Shown: positions 1-18,938, counted from the stretch's first letter. The stretch: DNA of 44,467 nucleotides from Candidatus Kaiserbacteria bacterium CG10_big_fil_rev_8_21_14_0_10_49_17 (GCA_002778575.1 PFBJ01000004.1:2084-46550), one strand, 5' to 3'. Made by a program: numbers and translations. Notes: a model not told the origin generated them from the sequence alone.

Positions 1-233
1 CGCCCGAGAATGGTTGGCGCAAAATCTTCGGATTCTATTTGTCGCCACGGAGCACCACTACCAATGAGCAAATCACCGAGCACAGTAATCCGTACAGGCG
101 CTTCCCCATTTGGGCACAGAAGAGAGGTAGTTTCAGTTTCAGCTGCCTTTATAAATGCAAATATACAAAGAACAAAAATGCCCACAGTAATATACGGCAC
201 AATTGAAGCGCGCGTGCTCGATGTCGTTTGCAT
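1..233 (-). CDS. Partial gene (3' end outside window): membrane-anchored protein, possibly CapA/PGA_cap-family metallophosphoesterase
   Basis: Not in the ORF track. Manual translation from ATG 233 gives MQTTSSTRASIVPYITVGIFVLCIFAFIKAA...VRITVLGDLLIGSG: an N-terminal TM segment plus a GD-hydrophobic motif like CapA motif I. A TGgTATCCT box lies 7 nt upstream. Confidence 0.5.
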   Translation of the reverse strand, partial: MQTTSSTRASIVPYITVGIFVLCIFAFIKAAETETTSLLCPNGEAPVRITVLGDLLIGSGAPWRQIESEDFAPTILG

Positions 234-269
234 ATTGCAAAGGATACCAGAGGTATGCGCTCTCAGCCT

Positions 270-2582
270 CTATTGGTGTGGGCTCGCCGGTTCACTACTC
301 TCCCGACGGCGCATCCAATGGTGGGCGCCGATGGCACCGAGCGCGACCAGTACGAGAATGCCGAGAAAGAGATTCCACGCAAGGAAGCGATTTGCACCGG
401 CCTCCTCCCGACTCGCGTCGGTATACGCAACCTCCCCAGACGCATCAACAGTTGCAATAATTTCTCCCTCTAGAATGCCATTTTCACCGTGCCCGATTGT
501 AATAACTTCAACAGTATCGTTGCGCGTCGTGAGGTACCCATAGAGCGTCTTGGGATCATACGCAATCATATTGTACGGTCGTCGATCTGTTTCCCCCCAA
601 AATGGCAGTACCCCAGACCACGCGAGCGTGAATTCCCCCGAACTCTCATCTTGAATGAACACATCGACAACCTCTTCGCCGCGGTGATTTATGTATACAA
701 ACTCCGTACTCGGATCAAAAAAGATACGGTACGGCTTTCCGTCTATTGGAATTTCCTGCGCGATTTTTCGCGTGTCTGGATTGATAACAATTACTTTTTC
801 ACCTCGCTCAACGGTCACAAGAATGCGATCGAGTTCAGATATGTAACGCACCCAGATAGGGTTTTCTCCAACCGGAATTGTACTAACAAGTTTTTGTGTC
901 GCCGTATCAATAACTGCTACCACACCGCCCGCGTAAAGAGCTGTATAGAGCATACCCCGACGCTCATCAATAGTGTTCACTAGCGGATAGCTTCCATCAG
1001 GTACATCAACTGTCCCAACCACCGTATCTGTCGCCCCGTCTATGACTGTAATTTTCCCTGCCGCCGCGTTCGAGTAATACAGAATGTTTTGTTCCTCAAA
1101 GATGACACCGCCGCGTGGTTGCTGTGCAAGCTGGAGTGTTTTTTGCGGGTATGTGTCATTTGTAATATCAATGACTGCAAGAGTACTGTCGGCAGGGCTC
1201 ACTGCGTAAAGCTTTTGCGTTTTCTTATTTAAGAAAAGATTCTGAATAGCCCGCCCGCTTGGAATTTTCTCAATCGGTTTAAATGTTGTTGCGTCTAGTA
1301 CAGTAATGAAATTGGCTCCAATGTTCGACACAAAGACGCGATTGCCAGGACTATCAATAACAATACTCTGTGGGCTGGAGAAAAATACCTCAGACGTATT
1401 TTGCGCAATCCTAATTGAACGAGCCTCAAGGGAGGTTACATCAACAACAATAATCTCCTCTCCTTGCCACGTTAAAATGTATGCCTCACTAGTCGTATCT
1501 GAGAATACAAGAGATTTCGCGGACATAACCACATCACGTCTGTCAATGATTTTATTTGCAGTCGTGTCGTAGACAATGTATTTCCCCTCTGTTCGATTCA
1601 GTATAAAAAGTCGCTTTAGGTTAGTCGCATACGCGATCTGTATGGGTGCTGTTTCAAAATACGCTGGCGAATTAATATCAATGGTCGTAGTAGTAAAATT
1701 CGGAGCGATAACGGTAATTGTTCCTGAAGCATTATTTGCGACGAAGACATCGCCGGTTTGCTCATCATACGCAAGGTCGGTTGGGTCTGCACCGACCGAA
1801 ACAATTGATACAACAGAGCCCGTATTTGGATCAATAACATACACATCATCTGAACCGGTATGAGAGATATACGCGTAGCCGGTCACATTATTAAGAAGGA
1901 TATCCGTCGGGCTCAAACCAACTGCCACCTCCTTGATTCCTGCAGATGTATCATCAGGGACAATACTCACCGTACCAGCCCCTTCATTGACGCTTACGAC
2001 AGTGTGATCAGCTGTAACGGCAAGGGCGGTCGGCAGTGCGCCAATACGCAGTTGCGCTTGCTGCTGTTCTGTAAGTGAAAGTCGGAAAAGGCTGTCAGCC
2101 CCATATCCCATGTATAACGTGGTCCCGTCTGGTGAAAATGCAAACGACAGTCGCCCGCTTTCGAGACGGCCATTGAATGTGTAGGCCGGGCCACCCTCAA
2201 GAGATTTCGTACCAGCATTGTATACCGCAACACTGAGGCGAAACATCCGATTGTCTGGATCATATTCAAGTACGACAATTCGGTCACCTGTTGACGATAG
2301 GAGTATCTGATACGGGACACCCCTCAATTCCGGAATTTTCTCGCCTTTAAACACAAAAGAATCCTCCCGAATATTGTACCCAGATACTGTGCCGTCCTTA
2401 TTAAGTATGTACAGGAGTGTACCATCTGTACTTACTGCTATATCTTGCGCTCCAGGAATTGAAAGCGCATCCTGCGCATGACTTACCATCGGAGCCATGC
2501 TTAAGAATGCGCCACAGCAAACAGTAATCGCTACGAGAACTGATACGAATCGACTATTGCACATTGGTGCGGAAAATAGCAT
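270..2582 (-). CDS. Large YVTN/YncE-type beta-propeller repeat surface protein with C-terminal TM anchor
   Basis: Many repeats of the type VGxxPxxlA...vyVxNxxSGTvsVID. N-terminal signal ending VSHA-Q; C-terminal hydrophobic helix followed by RRR. Start uncertain (2582 or 2564 preferred over 2642). Confidence 0.8.
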   Translation of the reverse strand: MLFSAPMCNSRFVSVLVAITVCCGAFLSMAPMVSHAQDALSIPGAQDIAVSTDGTLLYILNKDGTVSGYNIREDSFVFKGEKIPELRGVPYQILLSSTGDRIVVLEYDPDNRMFRLSVAVYNAGTKSLEGGPAYTFNGRLESGRLSFAFSPDGTTLYMGYGADSLFRLSLTEQQQAQLRIGALPTALAVTADHTVVSVNEGAGTVSIVPDDTSAGIKEVAVGLSPTDILLNNVTGYAYISHTGSDDVYVIDPNTGSVVSIVSVGADPTDLAYDEQTGDVFVANNASGTITVIAPNFTTTTIDINSPAYFETAPIQIAYATNLKRLFILNRTEGKYIVYDTTANKIIDRRDVVMSAKSLVFSDTTSEAYILTWQGEEIIVVDVTSLEARSIRIAQNTSEVFFSSPQSIVIDSPGNRVFVSNIGANFITVLDATTFKPIEKIPSGRAIQNLFLNKKTQKLYAVSPADSTLAVIDITNDTYPQKTLQLAQQPRGGVIFEEQNILYYSNAAAGKITVIDGATDTVVGTVDVPDGSYPLVNTIDERRGMLYTALYAGGVVAVIDTATQKLVSTIPVGENPIWVRYISELDRILVTVERGEKVIVINPDTRKIAQEIPIDGKPYRIFFDPSTEFVYINHRGEEVVDVFIQDESSGEFTLAWSGVLPFWGETDRRPYNMIAYDPKTLYGYLTTRNDTVEVITIGHGENGILEGEIIATVDASGEVAYTDASREEAGANRFLAWNLFLGILVLVALGAIGAHHWMRRRESSEPASPHQ

Positions 2583-2643
2583 AGATGTATTCCTTTTAGT
2601 GTACCGAAGCTTCAAAAAGGTTGCTACAACAGTTACCACCACC

Positions 2644-3594
2644 CTATTCTAAAGACAGCGAAACTATTGGGAACAGTCGTGCGTGCGGATAATCATCAGC
2701 AGTTTGTTTGTCAGAGATGTGAAAATATTTTCCAATGAGCGCCGTGAGAGTCTCTTCATCCGACGGCGACCAGTTTCGATATGAATGTGCATCTGCGGCA
2801 AGTGACGCGCGAACATCCTCAAGAATCGGGTCACGCAGGTTCTCATCACGAATAAATGCATCAAACGCTGCAAGAGACTGAGGGCGATCATAGTGTCGCT
2901 TTGTCGTGTCAGCAAAATACCAAACACTCTGAAGACGCAACAGTGCACTCTTTTCAACCTCTGTTACGGGAGAGGACAGTATTGAGATAGTCATATCCCT
3001 AAAGTTTTGCTCTTGAAAATAATCATCAATAAAAAAGAGTCGTGTAATTAATCGACCGTCGGGAGCTAAAAGTGATTGCATACGCTGTAGCAACGCTTCT
3101 TCACGAGCCGGTGAGACTTGGTGAAGTGCAACATCGCCAAGAATCACATCAAAAAAGTGATCTGGAAATGGAAGCCGTGTCCAATCATCTTTTATCCATC
3201 GCTCTTTTTCAGGATCAACTAATTCAGTAAATCGGAGCATTGCCGCAGGCATACTCGGAGCAAAATCAGCAACAAAGACATCCGCACCAGTTCGTGCCGC
3301 GCAATCTCGAAGCTCTGGTGTTGAACCGAGTATTAAAATACGTTGCGCAGAGCAGGCTGCGAGCATATCGCGGTAGATACGCAGTTCAGTTACGCTTGGC
3401 CGAATTGGAGGTGGGTACCGCCCCCAGAGGCGTGCCATGCGTTCCCAGTATGCAAGGTGTGCAGTGCCGCGCATGTCTCGCCCGTTCCGCTTCATTAGTG
3501 CAGAGTGTACCGCTGTGTCAAGTTCATATAATCCAGCATCATCGAGGAGTCCGGGAATGCGGCGTATCCAGTATCGTAAAATGGAGTATTTCAT
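2644..3594 (-). CDS. Class I SAM-dependent methyltransferase
   Basis: ILILGSTPELRD (motif I variant), VADFA, DWTRLPFPDHFFDVILGD, LLAPDGRLI. Confidence 0.8.
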   Translation of the reverse strand: MKYSILRYWIRRIPGLLDDAGLYELDTAVHSALMKRNGRDMRGTAHLAYWERMARLWGRYPPPIRPSVTELRIYRDMLAACSAQRILILGSTPELRDCAARTGADVFVADFAPSMPAAMLRFTELVDPEKERWIKDDWTRLPFPDHFFDVILGDVALHQVSPAREEALLQRMQSLLAPDGRLITRLFFIDDYFQEQNFRDMTISILSSPVTEVEKSALLRLQSVWYFADTTKRHYDRPQSLAAFDAFIRDENLRDPILEDVRASLAADAHSYRNWSPSDEETLTALIGKYFHISDKQTADDYPHARLFPIVSLSLE

Positions 3595-3638
3595 ATCTCT
3601 GGGTAGTACACATCGCTATGGTATCATACTGATTACCA

Positions 3639-4907
3639 ATGACGCCGATGAGCCTTGCGGAGATAATTCGCTACACATGGGAACATTCTTCATTTTATCG
3701 AGCATTTTGGGGTGAACATGGATTTTCCCCGGAGCAATTCGGTACTGTAGATGATCTCCACGCTATACCTATCCTAACCAAGGAAAGGCTTGCACAGGTA
3801 CCGCTTTCTGAGCGGACAATTAAAACTCCTGGGACTGCACACTATTTGGCCGATATTTCAAGCGGGACAACTCAAACCCCGCTTGTTGTCCTAAAATCTA
3901 ACCACATTCCGTCTGCACACTTTGCGTATGCACAAGCGAGAGCTGGTGCCTGTCAGTCAGCTATGGTGCTTCGCCCGGGTGTATTTGGAACTGCATTCCT
4001 CCACGGTGGTATGAATGCCGGCTACTTCCCACGCGGATCAACAGTGAGTATGGGAGACCCGCGCGATATCCCCTTCTCTGCTTACCTCGCAAAAGAGATT
4101 GCCATGGACTTCCTCGTTGCGCGCCCATCTGATGCAATTCGTCTCGCCCACGCCCTTACAGTTGTTGGCTATTCACCTGAGCGAGTCACAACAATCTGCT
4201 GTTCAGGAGAGCCTCTAACCACGGCGAGCGCGTCGCTCTTATCAGACTTATACCCAACCGCAACAATTCTCTTTGCCTACGGAATGACTGAGTGTCCAGC
4301 ATTCCTTGGTCTGCGTACTTCAAACTGCACGACACTCAGCACGATTGGTCCTGGTACATATCACCTTGATACTGATGCGTTTTACTTTGAGGAGTATGAC
4401 GGTCGAGCACTTATAACGACACTGGTACCGCTACCGACACCACTTATCCGATATGACACCGGCGATCAAATACAAATGAGTAAAACTGTTTCGTGCGCGT
4501 GCGGGTATACATCGGGGCTCATCGGAAGTGTTGGGCCTCGCACGACGCATGCGTATAAAATAGGCGGATGTTCCTTTTCACTTACCGCAGTACGTCAAGC
4601 TTTAGCGACTTTAGAGGGTCTCGTTACAGACGATTTTCGATTAGAGATAGAGCAGGTGCGCACACCGGCAGACACTCTTGCGCTTGATATACGCCTTGCC
4701 ATTCGGCCAGCAGGAGTAGCAACTCCGCTTCTCATTGAATCAGTACTGCAGGCGCTCAAACAGATGCCGGTACAGAAAACGCGCTCTCTCGGTGATGCTC
4801 TTGAAAGCACGCTCATCCGAAACCTTGAAATTATTCCTGAAAGTACAGTATCGGGCGCCGCATTAGTACCACCTCAGGAAATTACCAACGCATTTAAGCA
4901 AACCTAG
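3639..4907 (+). CDS. PaaK/phenylacetate-CoA-ligase-like adenylate-forming enzyme
   Basis: SFYR...DLHAIPILTK, SSGTTQTP P-loop, SGEPL, YGMTE, PLIRYDTGD, CACG. Confidence 0.8.
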   Translation: MTPMSLAEIIRYTWEHSSFYRAFWGEHGFSPEQFGTVDDLHAIPILTKERLAQVPLSERTIKTPGTAHYLADISSGTTQTPLVVLKSNHIPSAHFAYAQARAGACQSAMVLRPGVFGTAFLHGGMNAGYFPRGSTVSMGDPRDIPFSAYLAKEIAMDFLVARPSDAIRLAHALTVVGYSPERVTTICCSGEPLTTASASLLSDLYPTATILFAYGMTECPAFLGLRTSNCTTLSTIGPGTYHLDTDAFYFEEYDGRALITTLVPLPTPLIRYDTGDQIQMSKTVSCACGYTSGLIGSVGPRTTHAYKIGGCSFSLTAVRQALATLEGLVTDDFRLEIEQVRTPADTLALDIRLAIRPAGVATPLLIESVLQALKQMPVQKTRSLGDALESTLIRNLEIIPESTVSGAALVPPQEITNAFKQT

Positions 4908-5101
4908 TTTCGGTGTGCGCGCCACGCACGTGCCAGATGCACGATGAGTGTCAGCACGACCAAAACAAGGACGCCCCACCATACTGCCGTTGCAACATCA
5001 ATATGCGCAATAATACATTTCTGCGCAGGCGTAAGCGTGGTCGGCGATGCGCCTTCAAGACCGCGCAACACGATGAGTTGACTGCTTGTTGTGTTAGTCA
5101 T
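4904..5101 (-). CDS. Small single-TM membrane protein (65 aa)
   Basis: ATG overlaps the stop of the upstream HTTM gene (coupling); C-terminal hydrophobic helix followed by a basic tail. Confidence 0.5.
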   Translation of the reverse strand: MTNTTSSQLIVLRGLEGASPTTLTPAQKCIIAHIDVATAVWWGVLVLVVLTLIVHLARAWRAHRN

Positions 5102-6392
5102 AGATATTTTCTACTGGATAGCCGACGACTTCCGGTTCATCTGAGTGAGTTTTAATCCAATCATTGTGTGTCAATGGACGGTATTGAAGAGCGCAAAGCT
5201 CGTCGGTGTCTACGATTCGCAAAAACGGCCCCCCGTTTATTGAGTGGTCGAATGTCCACGCGGCACTCTGAATATGTGCAGCGTTGCGTTTGCAAAATGC
5301 ATTAAGACGGAACCAATAGCGGTATGGCTCACACCGCGCTCGAGCATTCGCACTTTCATTGTATATAACCTGTTCACTACCGTCCGTAAATGTAATGCGT
5401 GCTGTCGAGATGCATTGATGGTTCGATTCAAACATATACAAGCCGTATTTATTTCCCTCGAGGGTTAACTTTTCATCACCAGGAATAAAAAGTGGCAAAG
5501 ACTGCATGCATACGAGAAGCCCTACAAGCACCCAACCAGCAATAGAACGACGATCAAATGGGATTGGTGTCTTTCGATAAAAAAGCCCGAATAGAATGAT
5601 GAGCGTCGGAAGAACAACTGACGGATAGTGATACTTCACCAAGATTCCGGAGTAGAGGTGGAATGCTATAAAAAATACGAGGACGAGGCGTTGCACTAGG
5701 CCCGGCCGAGAGAGGAGGAACCACGCGCCCACCATTTCCATAAAAATGACAAGATTTGTCCAGAATGGAATCGACCAATCAGGGAAAAGTGGCAATCCGG
5801 TTTGAAGCGCTGAGAAGTATGTCCCTGCCACCCAGGCTGGGTGAATTTTTGCCACCGTAGAGAGCGCATAAAATAAAACGAAACAGAGCTTCAAGAAAAA
5901 CTCTTTATGGGGCAAGAACAATAGAATGGTAGTTAATACAAAAAGGTAATAATCGTAATTGCCACCAAGCTGACCTGAGAGAATAAATGTCGCTAACGCA
6001 TGCCAAAGGTACATAAGGACAATAGACATGTGCGCAAGGACCCACTCTTTGCGATACATAAGATAAACCGCAATAAGCATGAGGCCGAAAAGCCCCATAT
6101 AGAGAACCGTCTGAGAGTATCCATTTGGTAGACCGTGCAAGAAGAGCCAGTCCGTACACCCCTGAAAGTACGGTCGGCATACAGCGTATCCTTTCTCAAC
6201 AGCATCCGCAGTGAGAACAGTGCTTGAAACCCAAAAGCTGAATGTCGTGAAGTATGAAAAAAGTGAAGCGCCGAAGACCCACTTCAATACGAGCTCTTTT
6301 TCAAGTTCTTGGATTGAAAAAAAGCGTTGGTATGCATGAATAATGCGTTGATCGAACGTCGTTGGGAACAGTTTCTTAAGGAGTTGCGTCAT
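5094..6392 (-). CDS. HTTM-domain, vitamin-K-dependent gamma-carboxylase (VKGC)-like membrane protein
   Basis: Multi-TM. Motifs STVAKIHPAWVAG (cf. VKGC/HTTM AKL..DW..G), E...LL...R...FH, EGNKYGLYMF, and soluble C-terminal SINGGPFLRIVD...YRPLTHNDWI (cf. VKGC S.N.R.Q.lvDP...w.Pf....W). Confidence 0.75.
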   Translation of the reverse strand: MTQLLKKLFPTTFDQRIIHAYQRFFSIQELEKELVLKWVFGASLFSYFTTFSFWVSSTVLTADAVEKGYAVCRPYFQGCTDWLFLHGLPNGYSQTVLYMGLFGLMLIAVYLMYRKEWVLAHMSIVLMYLWHALATFILSGQLGGNYDYYLFVLTTILLFLPHKEFFLKLCFVLFYALSTVAKIHPAWVAGTYFSALQTGLPLFPDWSIPFWTNLVIFMEMVGAWFLLSRPGLVQRLVLVFFIAFHLYSGILVKYHYPSVVLPTLIILFGLFYRKTPIPFDRRSIAGWVLVGLLVCMQSLPLFIPGDEKLTLEGNKYGLYMFESNHQCISTARITFTDGSEQVIYNESANARARCEPYRYWFRLNAFCKRNAAHIQSAAWTFDHSINGGPFLRIVDTDELCALQYRPLTHNDWIKTHSDEPEVVGYPVENIYD

Positions 6393-6442
6393 ACGATTTC
6401 TTGCATTATGTCAGAAAATGACACGAAGAGGGAGCGTGAAAT

Positions 6443-6470
6443 AAAGCCGGTCGCATTCGCGACCGGCTTT
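6443..6470. terminator. Intrinsic terminator hairpin after the AstA-like gene
   Basis: AAAGCCGGTCGC-attc-GCGACCGGCTTT. Confidence 0.75.
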
Positions 6471-6473
6471 TCT

Positions 6474-7223
6474 CTATACCGCCTGCTCAAGCGCATCCGC
6501 CATAAACCGCTTGAGATTCGGAAGATGCTCGGAAATGGTCACATGGAATGCGTTAAGCGATGTTGGGACATACCGATGTGTTTCTTCAATTATTCCCCAC
6601 TGGAGGAAAAGCTCGAATGGTTTACGCAGAGGCGGAAACGCGCGCCCGCGCGTTTCTGTTATGACAGCCTGAGGCAATCTAGAAAGTGGGATTGGTTCAC
6701 GTGGCCATTTCTTCCAGATTGTACGCTCCATTGTTCCGAACGGGTTCTCTAAAAGTGCTGCGTACGGAACTCCAGTTACTTCAGCACCAACGCGATTCCA
6801 AAAAAGTGGGTTACCATCGGCGTCTTTGATTCCTGCCATACGCGCCCAGAGGCCACGGAGTGTTGCAGATGATTCGAATGTGTCCCACTCACGGAGAATA
6901 AGTCCAGCCAACTGCTTCAGTACACCAGAGCCGCGATACTTGGAATGGATGCACCACCCGCCAGTTCCGGTATACGGTCCATCATTATGAATCTGGAGGT
7001 GCTCGTCTTCAATCGTCAGGTACACGAAATCTGAAAAATGGGAAATCCATCCGAGCGCGACGAGACCGTCCGTATCACGAATGCTGGAAAGCACCATTTT
7101 CTTTTCAAGATGGTCGCACAACTCTACAACAGTACGCGGGTACAGCAATAGACCGCCAGCGTTCTGAGCGTAGAAAGCTAAGGCCTCTTCTGCCTGATTC
7201 GCAGAGATACGACCCAAGAGCAT
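6474..7223 (-). CDS. GNAT-fold acyltransferase related to arginine N-succinyltransferase (AstA-like)
   Basis: CIHSKYRGSGV acyl-CoA-binding motif A. ARMAGIKDADGNPLFWNRVG and WPREPIPLSRLP resemble AstA AEMRG..D..G.SPFW..LG and MPkyPIY..LL. SD AAGGAG upstream. Confidence 0.65.
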   Translation of the reverse strand: MLLGRISANQAEEALAFYAQNAGGLLLYPRTVVELCDHLEKKMVLSSIRDTDGLVALGWISHFSDFVYLTIEDEHLQIHNDGPYTGTGGWCIHSKYRGSGVLKQLAGLILREWDTFESSATLRGLWARMAGIKDADGNPLFWNRVGAEVTGVPYAALLENPFGTMERTIWKKWPREPIPLSRLPQAVITETRGRAFPPLRKPFELFLQWGIIEETHRYVPTSLNAFHVTISEHLPNLKRFMADALEQAV

Positions 7224-7257
7224 CGAACTGTCTCCTTTTAATCACTTCTCTGGGCGA

Positions 7258-7286
7258 ATACTAGTACCGCAACGCGACTGCGTCAA
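7258..7286 (-). promoter_or_regulatory. sigma70-type promoter for the AstA-like gene
   Basis: TTGACG-17 nt-TAGTAT on the minus strand. Confidence 0.6.
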
Positions 7287-8425
7287 TCACGCCTGCCGTA
7301 AAATGACCGAATAGCACCCGCCACCCTACTGACATCCCGCAATGACATCGAGTCAAAAAGTGGGAGCGAGAGAATACTTTCTGTGGCATTCTCTGCAACT
7401 GGAAAACTTCCCGCGTCCCAATGACCACCAAAAGCCTCGAAATATGGCAATGGAATTGGATAGTGCACAACTGGCTGTAGTCTCGGTATATGAGTAAACT
7501 CCCTCTTAAGATGGGTTAGCAGTGCGTCACGCTCCGCCGCCTGCACAGTATATCGGTACCAGCTCCGCACAGTTCCTTCAGCTTCAGTCGGTAGAGTAAT
7601 TTCTTTGATGTCTCGGAGTCTGTCAGTGTAGCAACTGGCAAGAGTGCGGCGATACGACAACCAGAAGGGTAAGAATGGGAGTTTGGCGTGAAGAATCGCA
7701 GCGTGCAACTCATCGAGCTTCCCATTTGTCCCGACATGTGGATACTCGTAAAACAGACGTGACGAACCATACTTCCGCAAGCGAGCCGCCAAATCCCGCT
7801 GTGAAGGATCGCGCACAAAAAGAGCGCCGGCTGCTCCTGGGCTTGAGAGGAGTTTCGTTCCTGAAAAACTAAAGCACCCAAAATCGCCAATAGTACCAAC
7901 CGGGCGTTGACTGCCAGAACTGTCAATCGAAGCACCGAGTGCTTGGGCAGCATCTTCGATTACCGGCACCTTATGCGCTCGGGCAATATGTACTACGCGT
8001 TCTATTTCACGCGAGGGTTGGCCAAAGAGGTGCGCGATAAGTATGGCACGTGTGTGTTTTGTAATTGCTCTCTGAAGCTGATGAGGGTCAAGTGACAGAT
8101 CATCTGATTGCACATCAATAAAAATGGGAGTTGCACCGAGCCATACAATTGGAGCAACGAGTGCCATGCATCCAAATGCCGGCACGATAACCTCATCACC
8201 ACGCCCTACACCGAGTACTTTAAGTGATAGTTCTATTGCATCACTACCACCACCAACACCAAGTACAGGGGCGCGCAAAAATGCAGAGAAATCCTGCTCG
8301 AAGCGACGAGTTTCAGTTACTTCATACCCATATTCAGCGCCACGAGAGAGCACGGCGCATGCTGCGTAAAACGTTAAGATGTGTTGCCGAACAGCAGTAC
8401 CTCGGCGACCAAAGACATACACCAT
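7283..8425 (-). CDS. DegT/DnrJ/EryC1/StrS PLP-dependent aminotransferase
   Basis: GSDAIELSL..LGVGRGDEVIVP, HLFG, VIEDAAQALG, FSFSGTKLL (PLP lysine), LSLPLF. Confidence 0.9.
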   Translation of the reverse strand: MVYVFGRRGTAVRQHILTFYAACAVLSRGAEYGYEVTETRRFEQDFSAFLRAPVLGVGGGSDAIELSLKVLGVGRGDEVIVPAFGCMALVAPIVWLGATPIFIDVQSDDLSLDPHQLQRAITKHTRAILIAHLFGQPSREIERVVHIARAHKVPVIEDAAQALGASIDSSGSQRPVGTIGDFGCFSFSGTKLLSSPGAAGALFVRDPSQRDLAARLRKYGSSRLFYEYPHVGTNGKLDELHAAILHAKLPFLPFWLSYRRTLASCYTDRLRDIKEITLPTEAEGTVRSWYRYTVQAAERDALLTHLKREFTHIPRLQPVVHYPIPLPYFEAFGGHWDAGSFPVAENATESILSLPLFDSMSLRDVSRVAGAIRSFYGRRD

Positions 8426-8479
8426 TACCGGTATGATAGTCTACCGCTTAAAAAAGAACCAGAGGATCAGGAGAGTGAG

Positions 8480-8779
8480 CTAACTGTCGCCGTCGCCGCT
8501 ACCGTCGCCACCACCACCGTCGCCGTCGCCACCCCACCCGTACCATCCGTACCATCCTTGAGAATAGTAATTATTTTGAGAGTAGTAGTTGCCTTGTGAG
8601 TAGTAGTTGCCTTGTGAGTAATAGGAACTTTGATTGTATGGAACATCGGCATGCGCTTCCTCAATGAATCGCGGATGTTCACCATCCTTAAAAAGTTTCT
8701 GCCCCAGGGCAATAACTGAAACAACAATAAGCGCACCGCCGAGTAAAAGAAATCGAGGTGTGTCTCTTAGGAGTTTCAT
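8480..8779 (-). CDS. Small exported/anchored repeat peptide (99 aa): hydrophobic leader, AHA-D site, YYSQGN-type hexads, GWYGWYGW, Gly/Asp tail; candidate precursor peptide
   Basis: ORF translation; the repeats are in-frame 18-nt units with synonymous variation between copies. Confidence 0.75.
   Translation of the reverse strand: MKLLRDTPRFLLLGGALIVVSVIALGQKLFKDGEHPRFIEEAHADVPYNQSSYYSQGNYYSQGNYYSQNNYYSQGWYGWYGWGGDGDGGGGDGSGDGDS
8538..8620. repeat. Coding tandem repeats in the peptide gene
   Basis: GAGTAGTAGTTGCCTTGT x2 exact (8580-8615) plus diverged flanking copies; CCGTACCAT x2 (8538-8555). Confidence 0.9.
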
Positions 8780-8814
8780 TACCTATATTGAAGCACAGAA
8801 ATGGCTTTGGTAAA

Positions 8815-9630
8815 ATGACAGATGTGAGTAATCAAATTTCGCTCCTCTTACCGCGATACGCAGGAATCGCATTCGCGCTCTTTATTGCTGTATGTGTTTT
8901 TCTGTACACAGCTCCCGGGCACGCTGCGACAATTGCCCTTCATTACCTCCACACACCTCGCCTCGCTTTCATGATTGATACGAATGCTGCGCGAGCTTTT
9001 GAAATTGGCGACTATTACTTTGAGAACCCGGCCGGCCCATATAGGCCAGATGCGGCAGCTAAGTATTTTGCCCGTACGCTATCTCTCGATCCAACACATC
9101 CACATGCCCACCACCAACTCGCGCGCATCTTTTTCTTGCGTGGCAATTTTGACAAGGCACTTGCAGAGATAAACGTACAGATTGAATTACATGGCGAATC
9201 GAGCATATCCTCTTATTACGTTCGAGGCCTTATTCTTGGCTATATGGGCCAGCCTGAGCAAGCCGAACAAGACTTCCGCCACTACCTCTCTAAACGAGAG
9301 CGAAACTGGGGTGCGTACAATGATATAGCATGGATTTACTTTCAGCTGGGAAACTTTGAGCAAATGCGGGAAGAAGCAGTGTACGGACTTCGTATTGCAC
9401 CAAATAATCCCTGGCTCTTAACAACGTATGGAGTTGCTGAAATGAATTTAGGCAATAAAGCGGCAGCAAGAGATAGTTTTGAAGCCGCACTTTCTGCTAT
9501 TGTTACTACTACGCCAGAGGAATGGTCCCGGGTAAATCCAGGTAACGACCCAGCAATTGCCGAGCGCGGGTTGGAAGAAATGCGTCGAACTATTGAGAAA
9601 AATATCGATTTACTTATCACCACCTCCTAA
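8815..9630 (+). CDS. Membrane-anchored tetratricopeptide-repeat protein
   Basis: N-terminal TM; TPR-like helices (AHHQLARIFFLRGNFDKALAE, SYYVRGLILGYMGQPEQAEQDF, AYNDIAWIYFQLGNFEQ). Start 8815 ATG or 8824 GTG. Confidence 0.8.
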   Translation: MTDVSNQISLLLPRYAGIAFALFIAVCVFLYTAPGHAATIALHYLHTPRLAFMIDTNAARAFEIGDYYFENPAGPYRPDAAAKYFARTLSLDPTHPHAHHQLARIFFLRGNFDKALAEINVQIELHGESSISSYYVRGLILGYMGQPEQAEQDFRHYLSKRERNWGAYNDIAWIYFQLGNFEQMREEAVYGLRIAPNNPWLLTTYGVAEMNLGNKAAARDSFEAALSAIVTTTPEEWSRVNPGNDPAIAERGLEEMRRTIEKNIDLLITTS

Positions 9631-9667
9631 CTGTCAGGCAACCTTAATCCGTTATACTAACATTGTC

Positions 9668-10342
9668 ATGGCATTACGACCATTAATGACTCTATTCGCA
9701 CTTGGTGCGCTTGTCATAGCTCTATCAGTTGCAATTGACACGGGCACTACAGGTAGCATGCGTGAAGCGGGACAAACGTCTGTTGAAGTTGGTGTCGCGG
9801 CCACGTCTCCACACGGAGATGGATATGTTATTCCTGCTTCGTGCGGCTCTCCACATACTGGTGATTTGTGTACACCTCCAACATTTAACTGCTCCCCTGA
9901 CGCTATAAACGAAGGCGCGGCCATCACGTGCTCGTGGCAGTGTGATAGCTCCACATCAAGCGCCGGGGTAAACTTTTCAACCGGTGGCGCCACCTCTGGC
10001 TCAGTAAATCTCACACCAAACACTAGCACCACATACACTGTTCAGTGCTCAAATGGCGGACAAGCGTCAGAGAGTGTCACAGTTCTTAATCCCGACCTCT
10101 CAATTACTGCAACTCCAGTACAAGTACGCTTCGGTGACACATCGACTATTGTCTGGGAAGCGACTGAAGTAAACAGTTGTTCGGTAACTGGTCCGAATTT
10201 CAGTGCATCTGGAACCTCTGGCAGTCAAGGTACTGGCTCAGTGACTCAAGAGAGCACGTATACGCTTTCCTGCTCAACCGACGGTGGTACGGTTTCAGAA
10301 TCAGTAACCATACGACTTATTCCGGCATTTGAAGAATTTTAG
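9668..10342 (+). CDS. Secreted Ser/Thr/Cys-rich protein with two Ig-like beta-sandwich repeats
   Basis: N-terminal TM; two repeats of T(i/c)xW...C...NFS.SG...SG...TYT(v/l)xC; C-terminal IPAFEEF. TATACT 9 nt upstream of ATG 9668. Confidence 0.7.
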   Translation: MALRPLMTLFALGALVIALSVAIDTGTTGSMREAGQTSVEVGVAATSPHGDGYVIPASCGSPHTGDLCTPPTFNCSPDAINEGAAITCSWQCDSSTSSAGVNFSTGGATSGSVNLTPNTSTTYTVQCSNGGQASESVTVLNPDLSITATPVQVRFGDTSTIVWEATEVNSCSVTGPNFSASGTSGSQGTGSVTQESTYTLSCSTDGGTVSESVTIRLIPAFEEF

Positions 10343-10391
10343 AAATCTCCTAAAGGAGCGCGGGTAAAAATTTCCGCGGCAAGAATGCATG

Positions 10392-10423
10392 GAGGCGCCT
10401 TCTGAAAAGGCGCCTCTTTTTTT
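10392..10423. terminator. Terminator hairpin between convergent genes
   Basis: GAGGCGCCTT-ctgaa-AAGGCGCCTC followed by T7. Confidence 0.75.
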
Positions 10424-10733
10424 ATCGGTGCCGGCGGTGATGCCGACCACGCCTGTGATGATGTCGCCAATAGTGACGGCGGCGATTCTGCCATTGGTAT
10501 TGCTGAATGATACCTGGCACGACACGCAGGAACATGTCGAGTGCTGGGTTGTACTCGTCGTTGCGGTAGCGATACCCGTGCCAGCGCCGGTAACACCGGC
10601 GTACCCACCCGTAGTAGCTGTGGTAGGTGTTGTAGCACCGCATGTAGTAGCCGGCATTAGCCGGAGTGGCTGTCACTGGAGCAAAAACAAGCAAGCCAGC
10701 AACAATAGCGCACGCACTGAGAATCCGCTTCAT
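10422..10733 (-). CDS. Small secreted Tyr/Arg/His-rich cationic protein
   Basis: Signal peptide ending TPANA; strong SD AAGGAGG; one Cys pair; RRRHYWRHHHRRGRHHRRHR tail. Confidence 0.7.
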   Translation of the reverse strand: MKRILSACAIVAGLLVFAPVTATPANAGYYMRCYNTYHSYYGWVRRCYRRWHGYRYRNDEYNPALDMFLRVVPGIIQQYQWQNRRRHYWRHHHRRGRHHRRHR

Positions 10734-11123: not shown

Positions 11124-11152
11124 ACGGCGACCCCTTAGGGTCGCCGTTTTTT
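11124..11152. terminator. Terminator hairpin between convergent genes
   Basis: ACGGCGACCC-ctta-GGGTCGCCGT followed by a T-run. Confidence 0.75.
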
Positions 11153-11690
11153 ATGAATTATTCGCCACAGTATCACTTCGGGGGAACTTCCCGAGAATCA
11201 CACGAATTCGTGATCCGCGAATTCGTGCCTCCAGTTTTTTCCAGTCCGCATTGTGCATGCGAATACACCCAGAGGAGACACGTTTGCCAATCTTGCTTGG
11301 CTGATTGGTGCCATGGATGCCAACCATATTATCCCCACGTCCCGAGAACCGGAGAACGAAGAAACCGACTCCGAGCGGATTTGCCGGCCCAGGCGGCACT
11401 GCTCTGCAGTGGCCGGTGCGCCGGCAGATATTGGCAGTTGGCACCCACGTCGGCCGGTACAGTGTGCGCACAACGCGCCCCACGGCCGGTAAGTAGCTTG
11501 GCATATAGTACGGAAGCGCCACCGGATAGCGGGCAACTTGCTGCCCATCGCTGTCATGAAGTGTGAGGAAACCCTCCGGCCCCTCATAGTGCACGCGAAT
11601 CGTATAATCCCAAGAATCGGCAATCACAATCTGTGGGAAGAGCACAAAAAGGAAAATTGCTGCAACAAAAAGTACGATTCGACGCATCAT
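11151..11690 (-). CDS. L,D-transpeptidase (YkuD/ErfK family)
   Basis: Signal peptide; PTWVPT, VPPGPANPLG, GIHGTN...SSGCIRM catalytic His/Cys motif; SD GAGGAGG. Confidence 0.9.
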   Translation of the reverse strand: MMRRIVLFVAAIFLFVLFPQIVIADSWDYTIRVHYEGPEGFLTLHDSDGQQVARYPVALPYYMPSYLPAVGRVVRTLYRPTWVPTANICRRTGHCRAVPPGPANPLGVGFFVLRFSGRGDNMVGIHGTNQPSKIGKRVSSGCIRMHNADWKKLEARIRGSRIRVILGKFPRSDTVANNS

Positions 11691-11795
11691 CTCCTCCTCT
11701 ATTGATGGTCTGTATCGACCCTACCAATAGAGAGGCCTCGTGTCGAGTGATATACTCTCACTATTGTAAGTAAAACCTATAGCGTAGGACTATTT

Positions 11796-12245
11796 ATGTA
11801 CACAAAGCAAGGCATCGCATTGTTTCTTTTCTCTCTTGCCGGAACCCTTTTTGCAGGCTACCTCTCTATTGGCAAGTTAATCTCTTCCCGGTGTGTCATT
11901 GACTCGGGGTGCTCATATTTCCTTGGCTATCCTACGTGCTACTACGGCTTTGCACTGTTTTTTACGCTTTTTATCCTCTCTTTCATTACCCTTATGAACG
12001 GTGCGCGCGCCTCACAAAACCTTCTAAAGTGTATCGTTATTATCGCGGGTATTGGTATTCTCTTCTCTGGGTACTTTAGCGCGATCGAAGTCACTCCAAT
12101 GATTACTGAGGGTATTCGCTACAGCCTCTTCTTCCCAACGTGTGTGTACGGATTAGTCTTCTACATACTCATTGCTTGCACAGCGTGGCAAAGAAAGAGC
12201 ACGAAGAAAGCAGAGAATCCTCAGCCTGTTCAGGACGAGGTTTAA
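11796..12245 (+). CDS. 4-TM membrane protein, VKOR/disulfide-formation-like
   Basis: G.LFAGYLS, loop C-x5-C (CVIDSGC), FLGYPTCYYG, GILFSGYFSAIE. The canonical CxxC is replaced by PTCVYG. Confidence 0.55.
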   Translation: MYTKQGIALFLFSLAGTLFAGYLSIGKLISSRCVIDSGCSYFLGYPTCYYGFALFFTLFILSFITLMNGARASQNLLKCIVIIAGIGILFSGYFSAIEVTPMITEGIRYSLFFPTCVYGLVFYILIACTAWQRKSTKKAENPQPVQDEV

Positions 12246-13168: not shown

Positions 13169-13627
13169 TTACTTTTGTTTTTTGGTTTTTGTTTTTGTCT
13201 TCTGTTTTCGTTTTTTAAGCTTTCCCTTCCCGTCACAGTGCCCGCAACTGCAGTGCGGAAAGACGTACTCCTTACAGTATTCCTTCCCGTAATCATACGA
13301 GAGCTCCTCCCCCGCTTCAATCGTTCGTTTCGCGTAGATAAAGACCCGCCTGCCGTCTATCTCTGCCTCGCAATTGGGTTTGCAGGAATGGTTAATGTAG
13401 CGCGCCTTGTTGTAGCGCGGTGCACCGTCTATCGTCCACTTTTTATCTATATCGAAAAGGTACTTTGTGCCTCGTTCATCTGCTTCTTCTGTCGTAATAC
13501 GCTCGCCGCCGTACTCAATAACGAATGCGTCTTTTTTGATTGGTACACTCGTAAAAAGCCCGAGACCAGCGGGTGGTTGTGAGCGCTTTGTGTGCAATCC
13601 TTTATGCTCCTTCCGGAATTTTTTCAT
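13169..13627 (-). CDS. SET-domain protein-lysine methyltransferase
   Basis: GLGLF, FVIEYGGE, ARYINHSCKPNC, GEELSYDYG, post-SET CSCGHC; Lys-rich tail. Confidence 0.9.
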   Translation of the reverse strand: MKKFRKEHKGLHTKRSQPPAGLGLFTSVPIKKDAFVIEYGGERITTEEADERGTKYLFDIDKKWTIDGAPRYNKARYINHSCKPNCEAEIDGRRVFIYAKRTIEAGEELSYDYGKEYCKEYVFPHCSCGHCDGKGKLKKRKQKTKTKTKKQK

Positions 13628-14285
13628 TATTCTGAAATCGCTTTATGTGCACGATAAGCATAATAGCAGTAAATGCTGAGGCTCCAAGAGTAATGTGCCA
13701 CAGAAGATGCGTACCAAATGGCACATACTGGCACACCAGAAAATCAATCGTACGCATCGCCGCTGCGAAAAGTGCAAGCGTGACGGCGCAAAGACCAATT
13801 ACAGCGGCGCGCTTCCCGTACTTCCGCAACGTACCCCACAAGAGAAGAATGCTAAAGAAAAGAATAGAGCCGTAGAGGACGACGAATGGAGAGACTGTGC
13901 CAGTAAATGAGAGGGATGAAAATGCAAAAGCCTGAATGCCGAGAAGAATGAGTGGCGCCAAGAAGCCGATGAGCCGCCCCGAAACGAGCGCACCCCAACA
14001 GAACACGAGAAAGAGCAGGAAAAGCACCCCAGGAAATACATCAAAAGACAGCGCCCAGCCGCTACGAAGCCCGTGCCAGAGCGTACTGCCAATGCCGGTA
14101 GCTAAGAGAAGGAAAGAGAGGATCCAAAGCTCCCACGCGCGTGGGGACGTGCGCCAAACAATGTAAAGCGCCAAGAGGCCGAGGAACATTGTCGGAAAAT
14201 TTGAAATAGTATTTATGAATTCCACAGGAAATGAATACACTCCCGTAAGCGGCGTCTCGCAATACTGCGGTCCAGTATGTGGCAT
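13602..14285 (-). CDS. CREST-superfamily 7-TM hydrolase (alkaline-ceramidase-like)
   Basis: YCE...EFINTISN, GIGSTLWHG (SxxxH), D, HLLWH (HxxxH) zinc-binding motifs. Confidence 0.75.
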   Translation of the reverse strand: MPHTGPQYCETPLTGVYSFPVEFINTISNFPTMFLGLLALYIVWRTSPRAWELWILSFLLLATGIGSTLWHGLRSGWALSFDVFPGVLFLLFLVFCWGALVSGRLIGFLAPLILLGIQAFAFSSLSFTGTVSPFVVLYGSILFFSILLLWGTLRKYGKRAAVIGLCAVTLALFAAAMRTIDFLVCQYVPFGTHLLWHITLGASAFTAIMLIVHIKRFQNNEKIPEGA

Positions 14286-18221: not shown

Positions 18222-18938
18222 ATGCCACAAAAAAGCAAGTACACACTACCCATTGCCATCGTTGTCGCAGGAGTGCTTATCGCAACTGCGCTTTACTTTA
18301 CCAGCAACCGTACCGACACACCGACAACCACTACGGACGGTCAAACCGCACTGGTGCGGAGCGTGCAACCAGACGACCACATTCTTGGTAATCCGAATGC
18401 GCGCATTGTGATTGTTGAGTACTCAGATTTTGAATGCCCATTCTGTAAATCATTCCACGAAACCATGCATCAGGTTATTGACGTGTATGGACCGACAGGA
18501 GACGTCGCGTGGGTATTTCGCCAATTCCCTCTTGCGCAGCTTCACTCAAAAGCGCCTCGCGAGGCACAGGCTTCAGAGTGCGCGGCACAGCTTGGCGGGA
18601 ATGAGGCGTTCTGGAAATATGCAGATCGCATCTATGAAATAACGCCATCGAATAACGGACTCGACCTCTCAAAACTTCCGGAGATCGCTGCCCAAATCGG
18701 ACTCTCGGTGGACGCATTTAATGCCTGTATGGAAGGTAGTGACGCAAAAAATGCGGTTGATGAGGACGTGGCTGAGGCATTCTCTGCCGGTGGCCGCGGC
18801 ACGCCGCATAATGTAATTATTGTCGGTGACCAGCAAGTGGTGCTTGAAGGAGCCCAGCCATTTGCCGCAATGAAGAATGTTATCGACTCAATCCTTGCTC
18901 CAGACTCGGAAGTAGGAATCCCAGCAGTGACGCAATAA
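18222..18938 (+). CDS. Membrane-anchored DsbA/thioredoxin-fold disulfide oxidoreductase
   Basis: N-terminal TM, EYSDFECPFC, FPL..LH, GTP, GAQP. Confidence 0.92.
   Translation: MPQKSKYTLPIAIVVAGVLIATALYFTSNRTDTPTTTTDGQTALVRSVQPDDHILGNPNARIVIVEYSDFECPFCKSFHETMHQVIDVYGPTGDVAWVFRQFPLAQLHSKAPREAQASECAAQLGGNEAFWKYADRIYEITPSNNGLDLSKLPEIAAQIGLSVDAFNACMEGSDAKNAVDEDVAEAFSAGGRGTPHNVIIVGDQQVVLEGAQPFAAMKNVIDSILAPDSEVGIPAVTQ

Follow-up and report, generated by a model that had tools for sequence, protein, structure and literature searches.

A leader-bearing peptide family and two independently conserved gene modules at a candidate peptide-maturation and surface locus of a Patescibacteria genome

Introduction

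In the usual view, bacteria of the candidate phyla radiation (CPR) have next to no specialised biosynthesis and spend their lives in attachment to host cells. Does the genome of such a bacterium hold a system for making a modified, exported peptide? The question is raised by a locus of the groundwater bacterium Candidatus Kaiserbacteria bacterium CG10_big_fil_rev_8_21_14_0_10_49_17, where a gene for a 99-residue repeat peptide, here called pep99, stands among genes for tailoring-type enzymes and anchored extracellular proteins. The stretch of DNA analysed, referred to as the window, is 44,467 nt long (C17:2084-46550, C17 being one of 20 contigs) and belongs to a 643-kb genome with a marker completeness of 100%. 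Five sequencing runs were listed as containing this genome, all of groundwater DNA and none of RNA, one of them being its possible source.

An earlier reading of the window from its sequence alone (the sequence-only reading) had proposed that positions 1-10342 encode a maturation and surface system like those of RiPPs (peptides that are synthesised ribosomally and modified after translation), built on one set of five tailoring enzymes. Every gene that it had listed there was recovered as an open frame where it had been placed. We found that pep99 is flanked by two independently conserved modules, each of which recurs with the same peptide family elsewhere. The reading that we favour, at a probability of about 50%, is that of a peptide-maturation and surface locus of new composition, a composite accessory island around pep99. 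The RiPP-like proposal is supported in its conserved modules, in the recurrence of the peptide and in the RiPP enzymes of relatives, and is given up as regards a single five-enzyme set.

Results

pep99 belongs to a family of leader-bearing peptides

8480..8779, minus strand: pep99, a 99-residue precursor-like peptide (leader profile E 8e-12)

The peptide begins with a basic N-terminus and a transmembrane (TM) helix (approximately residues 8-26), followed by a polar linker and an AHA|DVP junction (residues 42-47). The core after the junction is made of YYSQ(G/N)N and GWY repeats (Tyr/Ser/Gln/Gly) and a Gly/Asp tail, and contains no Cys; the gene carries DNA repeats of 18, 9 and 15 nt. No Pfam or NCBIfam model matched pep99.

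Comparisons were made with 79 loci from species-representative genomes (1.26 Mb), many of them kin, which had been collected via the carboxylase-fold gene described below. A strict filter for a hydrophobic N-terminus and a D/G tail returned 23 peptides in 21 of the 79 loci and, over the whole 643-kb genome, pep99 only. With a leader profile, 34 loci yielded 39 peptides at E<0.03, and at the stricter E<1e-3 there remained 32 peptides, from 30 loci. About two thirds of the matches had served in building that profile; those beyond the training set came from L018, L022, L024, L038, L043, L046, L050, L051, L054, L066, L074, L076 and L088 (L numbers denote individual loci). The same profile gave no match in 464 kb of unrelated contigs, and pep99 was its sole match below E 0.01 in the genome.

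When the leader alignment was compared with 1.84 billion protein representatives, 83 matches were obtained at E<=0.001, nearly all of them 49-133 residues long and matching at the N-terminus. The 24 that were inspected share one architecture, in which a charged N-terminus and a single TM helix lead through a linker to an AHAD(V/A)P junction, with a variable Gly/Asp/Ser/Cys core behind it. Within the leader, A44 and P47 are invariant and D45 is present in at least 90% of sequences, while the cores are hypervariable, spanning 21-58 residues with a mean content of 31% G, 19% D, 14% S and 6% C. Several loci hold two copies of the peptide, and in Patescibacteria 30 of the 39 family peptides lie within 5 kb of a carboxylase-fold gene. 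Judged by its leader, pep99 is a genuine member of a Patescibacteria family of leader-bearing, predicted membrane-targeted, precursor-like peptides. The gene-level features of RiPP precursors in general are present: the gene is small, its leader is conserved while its core varies, and it recurs across genomes beside modifying enzymes.

It is hardly credible that pep99 is no gene and that its frame is open merely by chance in repeat-rich DNA. Its low-complexity repeats and the lack of a Pfam or NCBIfam match would be expected of such a frame, but the leader match is strong and unique in the genome, the same leader and junction recur in relatives and in the 83 database representatives, and a family peptide occupies the same place upstream of the aminotransferase gene DegT in two other loci, L100 and L111.

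An enzyme module of conserved order adjoins the peptide

The genes next to pep99 include the following, here called module 1.

C17:2..1234, upstream of the window: PaaK2, another PaaK-like gene, truncated where the contig ends
3..233, minus strand: first 77 codons of a CapA/PGA_cap-like gene (PF09587, 170.3 bits)
270..2642, minus strand: YVTN-type beta-propeller protein, 790 residues (NCBIfam beta_rpt_yvtn, 91 bits)
2644..3594, minus strand: S-adenosylmethionine-dependent methyltransferase, 316 residues (Methyltransf_25, 34.1 bits against a cut-off of 27)
3639..4907, plus strand: PaaK1, a PaaK/F390-synthetase-like adenylate-forming protein, 422 residues (sub-threshold ANL-family matches)
6474..7223, minus strand: AstA-like GNAT, 249 residues (Pfam 19.8 bits, below the cut-off of 29.4)
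7283..8425, minus strand: DegT/DnrJ/EryC1 pyridoxal-phosphate aminotransferase, 380 residues (Pfam 276.5 bits against a cut-off of 19.8, E 4.9e-82)

The enzyme identities of the sequence-only reading hold for DegT and the methyltransferase, both above cut-off, and stay sub-threshold for the PaaK-like and AstA-like proteins. DegT is the only member of its family in the genome; its best NCBIfam matches are LegC (4.5e-47), dTDP-4-amino-4,6-dideoxygalactose transaminase (2.4e-46) and PseC (6e-37), all below the equivalog cut-offs. PaaK1 reached 17.2 bits with the AMP-binding model (cut-off 29.9) and, far below the NCBIfam cut-offs, matched FlxY (3.3e-16, 59 bits), DVU_1553 (51.7 bits) and PaaK (4.4e-13, 48.6 bits). 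PaaK2 scored 25.4 against 29.9 for AMP-binding and 85 against 300 for DVU_1553; this gene was missed in the first reading, as was the small gene A at 4904..5101. For the GNAT, the nearest ESM Atlas clusters are AstA (score 0.91, 184 shared features), a lead only. The whole CapA-like gene lies at C17:1231..2316, mostly upstream of the window, and its sole NCBIfam match is the lasso-peptide epimerase MslH (2.4e-14, 52.6 bits against a cut-off of 700, over about 80 residues).

No hydrophobic N-terminus is found in PaaK1, PaaK2, the methyltransferase or the GNAT, and DegT has an internal hydrophobic segment only (79-97); these enzymes are predicted to be cytoplasmic. The CapA-like protein, with an N-terminal hydrophobic segment (residues 10-28), and the YVTN protein, with an N-terminal signal or anchor (32-50) and a C-terminal membrane helix (753-771), are predicted to lie on the outer face.

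Module 1 was found in 18 loci outside the window through genome searches and a metagenome scan. The order PaaK2, CapA, YVTN, methyltransferase (minus), PaaK1 (plus), GNAT, DegT (minus) recurs in L099, L100/L101, L102, L104 and L109, and L093 keeps the gene order as well. Since this order is kept at 35-49% identity, module 1 is most simply regarded as one functional unit. Orthologues of the YVTN protein (35-43% identity) adjoin the methyltransferase in L093, L099, L100, L102, L109 and L112, orthologues of the methyltransferase (43-49%) adjoin PaaK1 in 10 loci, and the CapA-like gene has the same position in the window, L099 and L100/L101 and stands elsewhere in the locus in L109. The GNAT lies between PaaK1 and DegT in L093, L100, L102, L104, L109 and L111; wherever both flanks are present the order is PaaK1-GNAT-DegT, which disposes of the suggestion that the AstA-like gene is an independent cassette.

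The module is rare. One of 300 other genomes of the class has the GNAT, and there YVTN, PaaK2, methyltransferase, PaaK1, GNAT and DegT are clustered without a carboxylase-fold gene. PaaK1 had a single weak match in 400 genomes of the phylum and, among 8000 scored candidates of a 5.8-billion-protein collection, four other proteins at E<=1e-10; a metagenome scan yielded 17 orthologous loci at 36-47% identity. The module-1 methyltransferase was not found in five genomes of the same family, which fits an accessory, acquired module.

The peptide family accompanies this module. Immediately upstream of DegT there is a family peptide in the window, in L100 (62 residues, ...VTADSP...GDGDS) and in L111 (68 residues, ...VSADVPGGGG...GDT). 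In L109 the peptide stands upstream of YVTN, and YcaO, a SagB-type gene and a TPR protein occur in that locus too. The neighbourhood comparison called for by the sequence-only reading returned a conserved DegT/GNAT/PaaK/methyltransferase module with a leader peptide beside it in four of the four canonical loci that retain the relevant flank, contig ends having cut the others; GNAT identity among these four is 36-51%. Separately, L109 (1183..1898) and L107 (5067..5776) carry a retropepsin-like protein of 160-167 residues (DSGA motif) with a protein of 77-91 residues, a pair seen in these two module-1 loci only and probably a mobile two-gene element. The retropepsin-like proteins were considered as leader proteases and rejected, since neither the genome nor any of the 79 loci has them.

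Two variants of module 1, L103/L106/L108 and L098/L107, have no family peptide. Among them they carry PIG-L, GFO/IDH/MocA, FabH-like, nucleotidyltransferase, glycerophosphotransferase and DUF4015 genes; both have several PaaK-like genes, a GNAT and a FabH-like gene. L103/L106/L108 keeps DegT beside the FabH-like gene, and L107, which has both the glycerophosphotransferase and the nucleotidyltransferase, has as its sole DegT a more diverged one (33% identity), situated about 9 kb off. The sequence-only reading had named tracking with polysaccharide loci as a result that would speak against it, and these peptide-less variants of sugar or teichoic type show such tracking in part.

They bear on the foremost alternative, in which module 1 performs envelope sugar or small-molecule chemistry, its product going onto a glycan, lipid or wall polymer and the peptide being a neighbour rather than a substrate. 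DegT and the GNAT would then make an N-acylated amino sugar, to be decorated by the PaaK-like ligases and the methyltransferase, with the CapA-like and YVTN proteins acting outside; pep99 would be an unmodified acidic, possibly Ca-binding, anchored peptide, and the peptide, TPR and Ig-like genes other surface genes of the island. The sugar-aminotransferase matches of DegT fit this account, as do the variants and the presence in the genome of three SDR epimerase/dehydratase genes and one family 2 glycosyltransferase (GT2). Against it, no glycosyltransferase, flippase or polymerase was found among window genes at 1..20 kb or in the canonical module-1 loci as far as these were scanned (10 neighbour proteins by Pfam), the only GT2 of the genome lies about 49 kb away on the contig (C17:59733), no PF00483 nucleotidyltransferase was found in the genome, and the peptide is adjacent in all four diverged canonical loci. 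We consider this alternative unlikely, if still the one most deserving of weight.

A carboxylase-fold protein and its small partner form a second module

5094..6392, minus strand: carboxylase-fold protein, 432 residues, multi-pass membrane protein with a vitamin K gamma-carboxylase fold (HTTM plus lumenal domain)
4904..5101, minus strand: A, a 65-residue single-pass membrane protein whose ATG overlaps the carboxylase-fold stop by 8 nt

pep99, DegT, the GNAT, the carboxylase-fold gene and A are co-directional, separated by gaps of 54, 59, 81 and -8 nt. The sequence-only reading had called the carboxylase-fold protein a VKGC/HTTM-like enzyme, a call that is sustained at the level of fold and finds no counterpart in sequence matches to the family models. 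The window protein matched no Pfam or NCBIfam model, even at E 10; three relatives, too, gave no match to the family models (PF05090, PF22777) at E<=10; PF05090 had no match in six frames of the genome; a profile of the protein had no match among PDB sequences; and hhalign against a Pfam-positive HTTM protein gave a probability of 0.1. All 529 homologues found, of which 32 were aligned, are likewise without Pfam domains. Because the sequence-level searches were all negative, the link to HTTM is one of fold. In the AlphaFold model (pLDDT 86, pTM 0.86), the top 16 PDB matches by Foldseek were all human GGCX (E 2e-7 to 4e-3). A VIA comparison with GGCX gave Z 19.4 and a root-mean-square deviation of 3.5 A over 354 residues, model residues 28-425 falling on chain residues 58-509, with the next unrelated chain at Z 6.9; a structure search of the ESM Atlas gave TM scores of 0.75/0.71 to a bacterial PF05090+PF22777 cluster.

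Lys182 (K182) is invariant and ends a predicted helix (163-182) that is followed by a 22-residue loop, and E219 is a consensus residue in the next helix. In GGCX the catalytic K218 is reported to lie in TM5 just ahead of the TM5-TM6 cap loop, with D263 as its acidic partner (PMC12589487; PMC13486548). By helix order and spacing, K182 would occupy the topological place of GGCX K218, and E219 may correspond to D263. Invariant Cys pairs lie in loop 1 and in the C-terminal domain.

The small gene A is the usual companion of the carboxylase-fold gene: its profile gave 73 matches in 72 of the 79 loci, next to that gene. Twelve of the matches lie in a stop-to-stop frame longer than 900 nt, and about ten of these read, from their tails, as the enzyme's own frame, with about five N-terminal extensions in alphaproteobacterial loci and about five C-terminal extensions in Patescibacteria. 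A is predicted to bind the carboxylase-fold protein as a subunit: the modelled complex scored 0.84 (best of three controls, 0.00). Of 80 solved complexes 58 attain the mark that it passed, as do 2 of 110 mismatched pairs, figures that apply here only approximately since the alignments were our own. At least 95% of contacts are common to the runs, the pLDDT of the partner is at least 83, and in the model the membrane helix of A packs on enzyme residues 176-224 and its N-terminal segment on the C-terminal outer domain.

This second module, too, recurs with the peptide family. Carboxylase-fold homologues have a leader peptide within 10 kb in 34 of the 79 loci, a co-occurrence that the sequence-only reading had asked to have scored for the HTTM homologues, and in the two closest same-family genomes that hold the gene it is followed by A and then by a pep99 homologue. 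The gene is sporadic, occurring in 3 of 60 relatives. None of the 18 module-1 loci elsewhere has the carboxylase-fold gene and A, so the pair is here an insertion into the convergent gap between PaaK1 and the GNAT, and the five enzymes once read as a single set fall into two modules. Conversely, tblastn placed no homologue of DegT, the GNAT, the methyltransferase or YVTN within 10 kb of that gene in any of the 79 loci; a CapA homologue is close by in 1 of them and a PaaK-like gene in 7. There are hints that PaaK-like ligases and the carboxylase fold are recurrently linked, independently of module 1. A paralogue of the carboxylase-fold protein (38% identity) flanked by three PaaK-like genes was observed in L011 (G009:C30, 1..9575).

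Could the carboxylase-fold protein and A instead be a general outer-face redox or maturation factor for exported Cys-rich proteins, in the manner of MauE, DoxX, LMF1 or SdpB, that came to this place by an accident of insertion? The feature neighbours of the protein in the ESM Atlas are MauE/DoxX clusters (0.92-0.96), neighbours in related loci include DsbA-like, rhodanese and DCC1-like proteins (12, 9 and 7 sources, respectively), and the invariant Cys pairs, the 15 non-CPR loci in which the pair stands without a peptide and its lack in the other 18 module-1 loci all fit. A Pfam-positive HTTM protein of Patescibacteria fused to a C-terminal DCC1-like thiol-disulfide oxidoreductase domain (L176, 1093..2400, minus strand) links the HTTM fold to thiol redox chemistry. 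On the other hand, in Patescibacteria the carboxylase-fold gene is no more than 5 kb distant from 30 of the 39 family peptides, the two nearest genomes have the enzyme, A and a pep99 homologue in a row, the pairing persists though pep99 has no Cys, and the window's VKOR gene has no counterpart as a neighbour in any of the 79 loci. On balance a general redox role is distinctly improbable, and a peptide-maturation locus remains our preferred reading. A vitamin K cycle pairing of the window VKOR (11796..12245) with the carboxylase-fold gene was also considered and rejected on the same count within 10 kb.

In four of the peptide-less loci (L060, L061, L064 and L069, near position 10000), from Micavibrio-like and other Alphaproteobacteria, the carboxylase-fold gene and A stand between a run of ribosomal-protein and EF-G-like genes and one or two large frames (1149-1424 residues), with no family peptide near.

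RiPP-type enzymes adjoin the peptide family in relatives

Clustering of 1479 frames from the 79 loci and this contig (80 sources) gave the following recurrent neighbours.

Phosphoribosyltransferase and beta-propeller fusion, the commonest: 50 of 80 sources
TPR/Ig-like cluster: 35 of 80
YcaO: 26 of 80
Anchored helical protein c4: 25 of 80
Cys-rich anchored protein c5: 22 of 80
Nitroreductase-fold protein: 20 of 80
DsbA-like protein: 12 of 80
Rhodanese: 9 of 80
PaaK-like protein: 8 of 80
DCC1-like protein: 7 of 80

The YcaO proteins score as the SagD type of thiazole/oxazole-modified microcin (TOMM) systems, with a best score of 219.3 bits (cut-off 219.25), and the nitroreductase-fold proteins as SagB-type (TIGR03605), at 129-130 bits against 78.4. 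In relatives, then, a SagD-type YcaO and a SagB-type dehydrogenase adjoin the peptide family, which bears out the tie to RiPPs that the sequence-only reading had drawn. Where YcaO shares the locus, 16 of 22 peptides have cores with at least two Cys; where it does not, 4 of 15 do. These counts include kin, which are not independent, and the overlapping loci L038 and L076 of a single contig. The c4 gene follows the peptide gene in 17 of 39 cases, and YcaO is divergent from the peptide in 8.

Membership of the present locus in the TOMM class was rejected, as neither YcaO nor a SagB-type dehydrogenase was found in the genome by tblastn (for YcaO, with up to seven query proteins from related loci, E<=1e-4). 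DCC1 and rhodanese were likewise not found in the genome by tblastn. The clusters c4, c5 and c14 matched no Pfam or NCBIfam model and are absent from the genome or, for c5, on another contig. The propeller fusion (for example L031, 11500..13167; L100, 11559..13352) is a cytoplasmic protein that joins an orotate-phosphoribosyltransferase-like part to a PQQ/BamB-type propeller.

Anchored surface proteins and the wider window

8758..9630, plus strand (probable start ATG 8815): membrane-anchored TPR protein (Pfam), divergent from the peptide gene
9557..10342, plus strand (probable start ATG 9668): predicted membrane-anchored protein with two Ig-like domains and 10 Cys (from its model)
1..543, plus strand: 180-residue Arg/Ser/Pro-rich frame antisense to CapA and YVTN, taken as spurious, non-coding

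CapA, YVTN, the peptide, TPR and Ig-like proteins all have N-terminal hydrophobic segments, so the anchored extracellular proteins of the sequence-only reading (YVTN, TPR, Ig-like and CapA-like) are indeed present, with only 77 codons of CapA inside the window. In 33 of the 79 loci tblastn placed a TPR homologue no more than 10 kb from the carboxylase-fold gene; such homologues also occur in L100/L101 and L109. The Ig-like protein has no Pfam match; its model matches tandem Ig-domain ectodomains (198 at E<=0.001), and homologues were found in 20 of the 79 loci.

Promoter and terminator scans of the region did not rise above shuffled sequence (12 against 13.5 and 14 against 11.2, respectively), and no tRNA gene or Rfam family was found in the window. 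The only standout is a hairpin at 10391-10417, the strongest of the region, with an 11-bp stem, 7 GC pairs and a T-run; it is placed where the Ig-like gene and a 103-residue frame (10422..10733, minus strand) converge, between their ends, and is a candidate two-way terminator. That frame has a signal peptide (..PANA|G) and a very basic Tyr/Arg/His-rich body ending RRHYWRHHHRRGRHHRRHR, opposite in charge to the acidic, Tyr-rich pep99 1.6 kb away; it had no Pfam match and no homologue in the related loci.

Further along the window, within 20 kb of the carboxylase-fold gene, are a YkuD L,D-transpeptidase with a VKOR-family protein (11151..12245) and a DsbA-like thioredoxin (18222..18938). At 13169..14285 on the minus strand, the gene for a SET-domain protein (91 bits) has directly after it one for a membrane protein of the ceramidase family (49 bits), and a SET homologue is near the carboxylase-fold gene in L058. 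Beyond 13 kb the window holds housekeeping genes: HisRS, UppP, sigma-70, primase, rpoB/rpoC, TrmD, S16, RNase R, SMC, RNase III, NusB, L32, RNase HII and DnaE.

Discussion

How might the locus work? What the analysis shows is that the genes are present, to which families they belong, that they co-occur, and that enzyme and subunit are predicted to be in contact. We infer the chemical steps, the cleavage and the enzyme that touches the peptide, and the scheme is conditional throughout. The peptide would be made with its N-terminal membrane helix and linker serving as a leader. DegT, the GNAT, the two adenylating ligases and the methyltransferase could themselves modify the Gly/Asp/Tyr core, or else synthesise for it a donor of amino-sugar or acyl type. 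The peptide would be inserted with its core outward and then cut at the conserved AHA|D junction, and the carboxylase-fold enzyme with its subunit, together with the CapA-like, YVTN, TPR and Ig-like proteins, may process, hold or display the acidic product outside.

Several points weigh against a peptide-maturation locus. First, the leader contains a TM helix 15-30 residues ahead of the junction; such a helix is atypical for RiPP leaders, the junction is too distant for an ordinary signal-peptidase site, and no recurrent protease or transporter appears among the neighbour cluster lists of related loci. If the core is exported, the cytoplasmic enzymes can act only before export. Second, the genome has no YcaO, SagB-type gene, propeller fusion or c4 by tblastn, and pep99 has no Cys, so the RiPP argument is borrowed from relatives. 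Third, the related loci were picked via one gene and many are kin, and ribosomal-protein genes recur among them as well (14 loci); part of the co-occurrence is therefore inherited synteny. Fourth, the carboxylase-fold gene and A stand without a family peptide in all 15 loci labelled Proteobacteria, Bdellovibrionota or Caenarcanales, so that their function does not depend on the peptide. Lastly, DegT with a GNAT is a classic amino-sugar pairing, and the peptide-less variants of module 1 carry their PIG-L, GFO/IDH/MocA, FabH-like, nucleotidyltransferase, glycerophosphotransferase and DUF4015 genes.

A bolder extension would make the family an undescribed modular peptide class of Patescibacteria, in which interchangeable cassettes (mostly SagB/SagD, here sugar/acyl) mature the acidic Gly/Asp cores and combine with a quinol-driven modification by the carboxylase-fold protein and an obligate subunit, A, on the outer face, for example carboxylation of acidic residues, to yield a metal-binding surface peptide for host attachment. 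We offer this as a long shot. The peptide family, the carboxylase-fold/A pair and module 1 were undescribed in the literature searched, whose coverage stops short of the supplementary tables of genome-mining papers, which may list such clusters; on YcaO in Patescibacteria it offered passing antiSMASH mentions only, and it named no bacterial substrate of the carboxylase (HTTM) fold. A recurring leader-peptide family would give CPR bacteria a diversifiable surface or secreted peptide system.

Comparison with known systems

We know of no RiPP class that combines DegT, an AstA-like GNAT, two PaaK-like ligases, a methyltransferase and a carboxylase-fold protein, and in the literature searched the enzyme set of the locus matched no described class, in line with the sequence-only reading. 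TOMM systems (SagB/SagD, microcin B17-like) are alike in the small precursor with its conserved leader and hypervariable Gly/Ser/Cys-rich core and, in relatives, in the SagD-type YcaO and SagB-type neighbours, the Cys-rich cores that go with YcaO and the several precursor copies per locus. They differ in that this genome has neither enzyme and pep99 no Cys, in the membrane helix and AHAD(V/A)P junction of the leader, and in that no ABC exporter or leader protease recurs in the related loci.

The epimerase MslH of the lasso peptide MS-271, the sole NCBIfam match of the CapA-like protein, represents a fold able to tailor ribosomal peptides; the CapA-like protein differs in its N-terminal membrane segment, because of which it would act outside the cell. 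Pairs of a DegT-family aminotransferase and an N-acyltransferase, such as WecE/WecD and PseC/PseH, serve amino-sugar synthesis. The present locus resembles them in having DegT followed directly by a GNAT and in the sugar-aminotransferase matches of DegT. It differs in that DegT falls below the equivalog cut-offs and the GNAT is AstA-like, in that the module holds no dehydratase, glycosyltransferase or flippase, and in the leader peptide adjacent in all four canonical loci.

SdpB of Bacillus subtilis belongs to the HTTM family, and among our control genomes PF05090 matches in B. subtilis. In the SdpABC/YitPOM systems of that species, an exported protein with an N-terminal secretion signal is reported to yield a short peptide in a process that needs the membrane protein SdpB (PMC6818787). 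The carboxylase-fold protein differs in having no NCBIfam match to SdpB models, and its candidate substrate is acidic and of low complexity rather than a hydrophobic toxin.

GGCX itself is alike in fold, both in the membrane domain and in a portion of the lumenal one, in having its active side topologically outside, where an anchored exported peptide would sit, and, by helix order only, in an invariant Lys (K182) that ends a predicted helix. The two differ in sequence (13-14% identity, no PF05090 match), in length (432 residues here, a chain of 650-700 residues in GGCX), in the separate 65-residue partner, and in a candidate substrate that is Asp/Gly-rich rather than Glu-rich. With this defined mini-subunit and a candidate substrate next door, the locus would offer a compact bacterial model for carboxylase-fold (HTTM) proteins.

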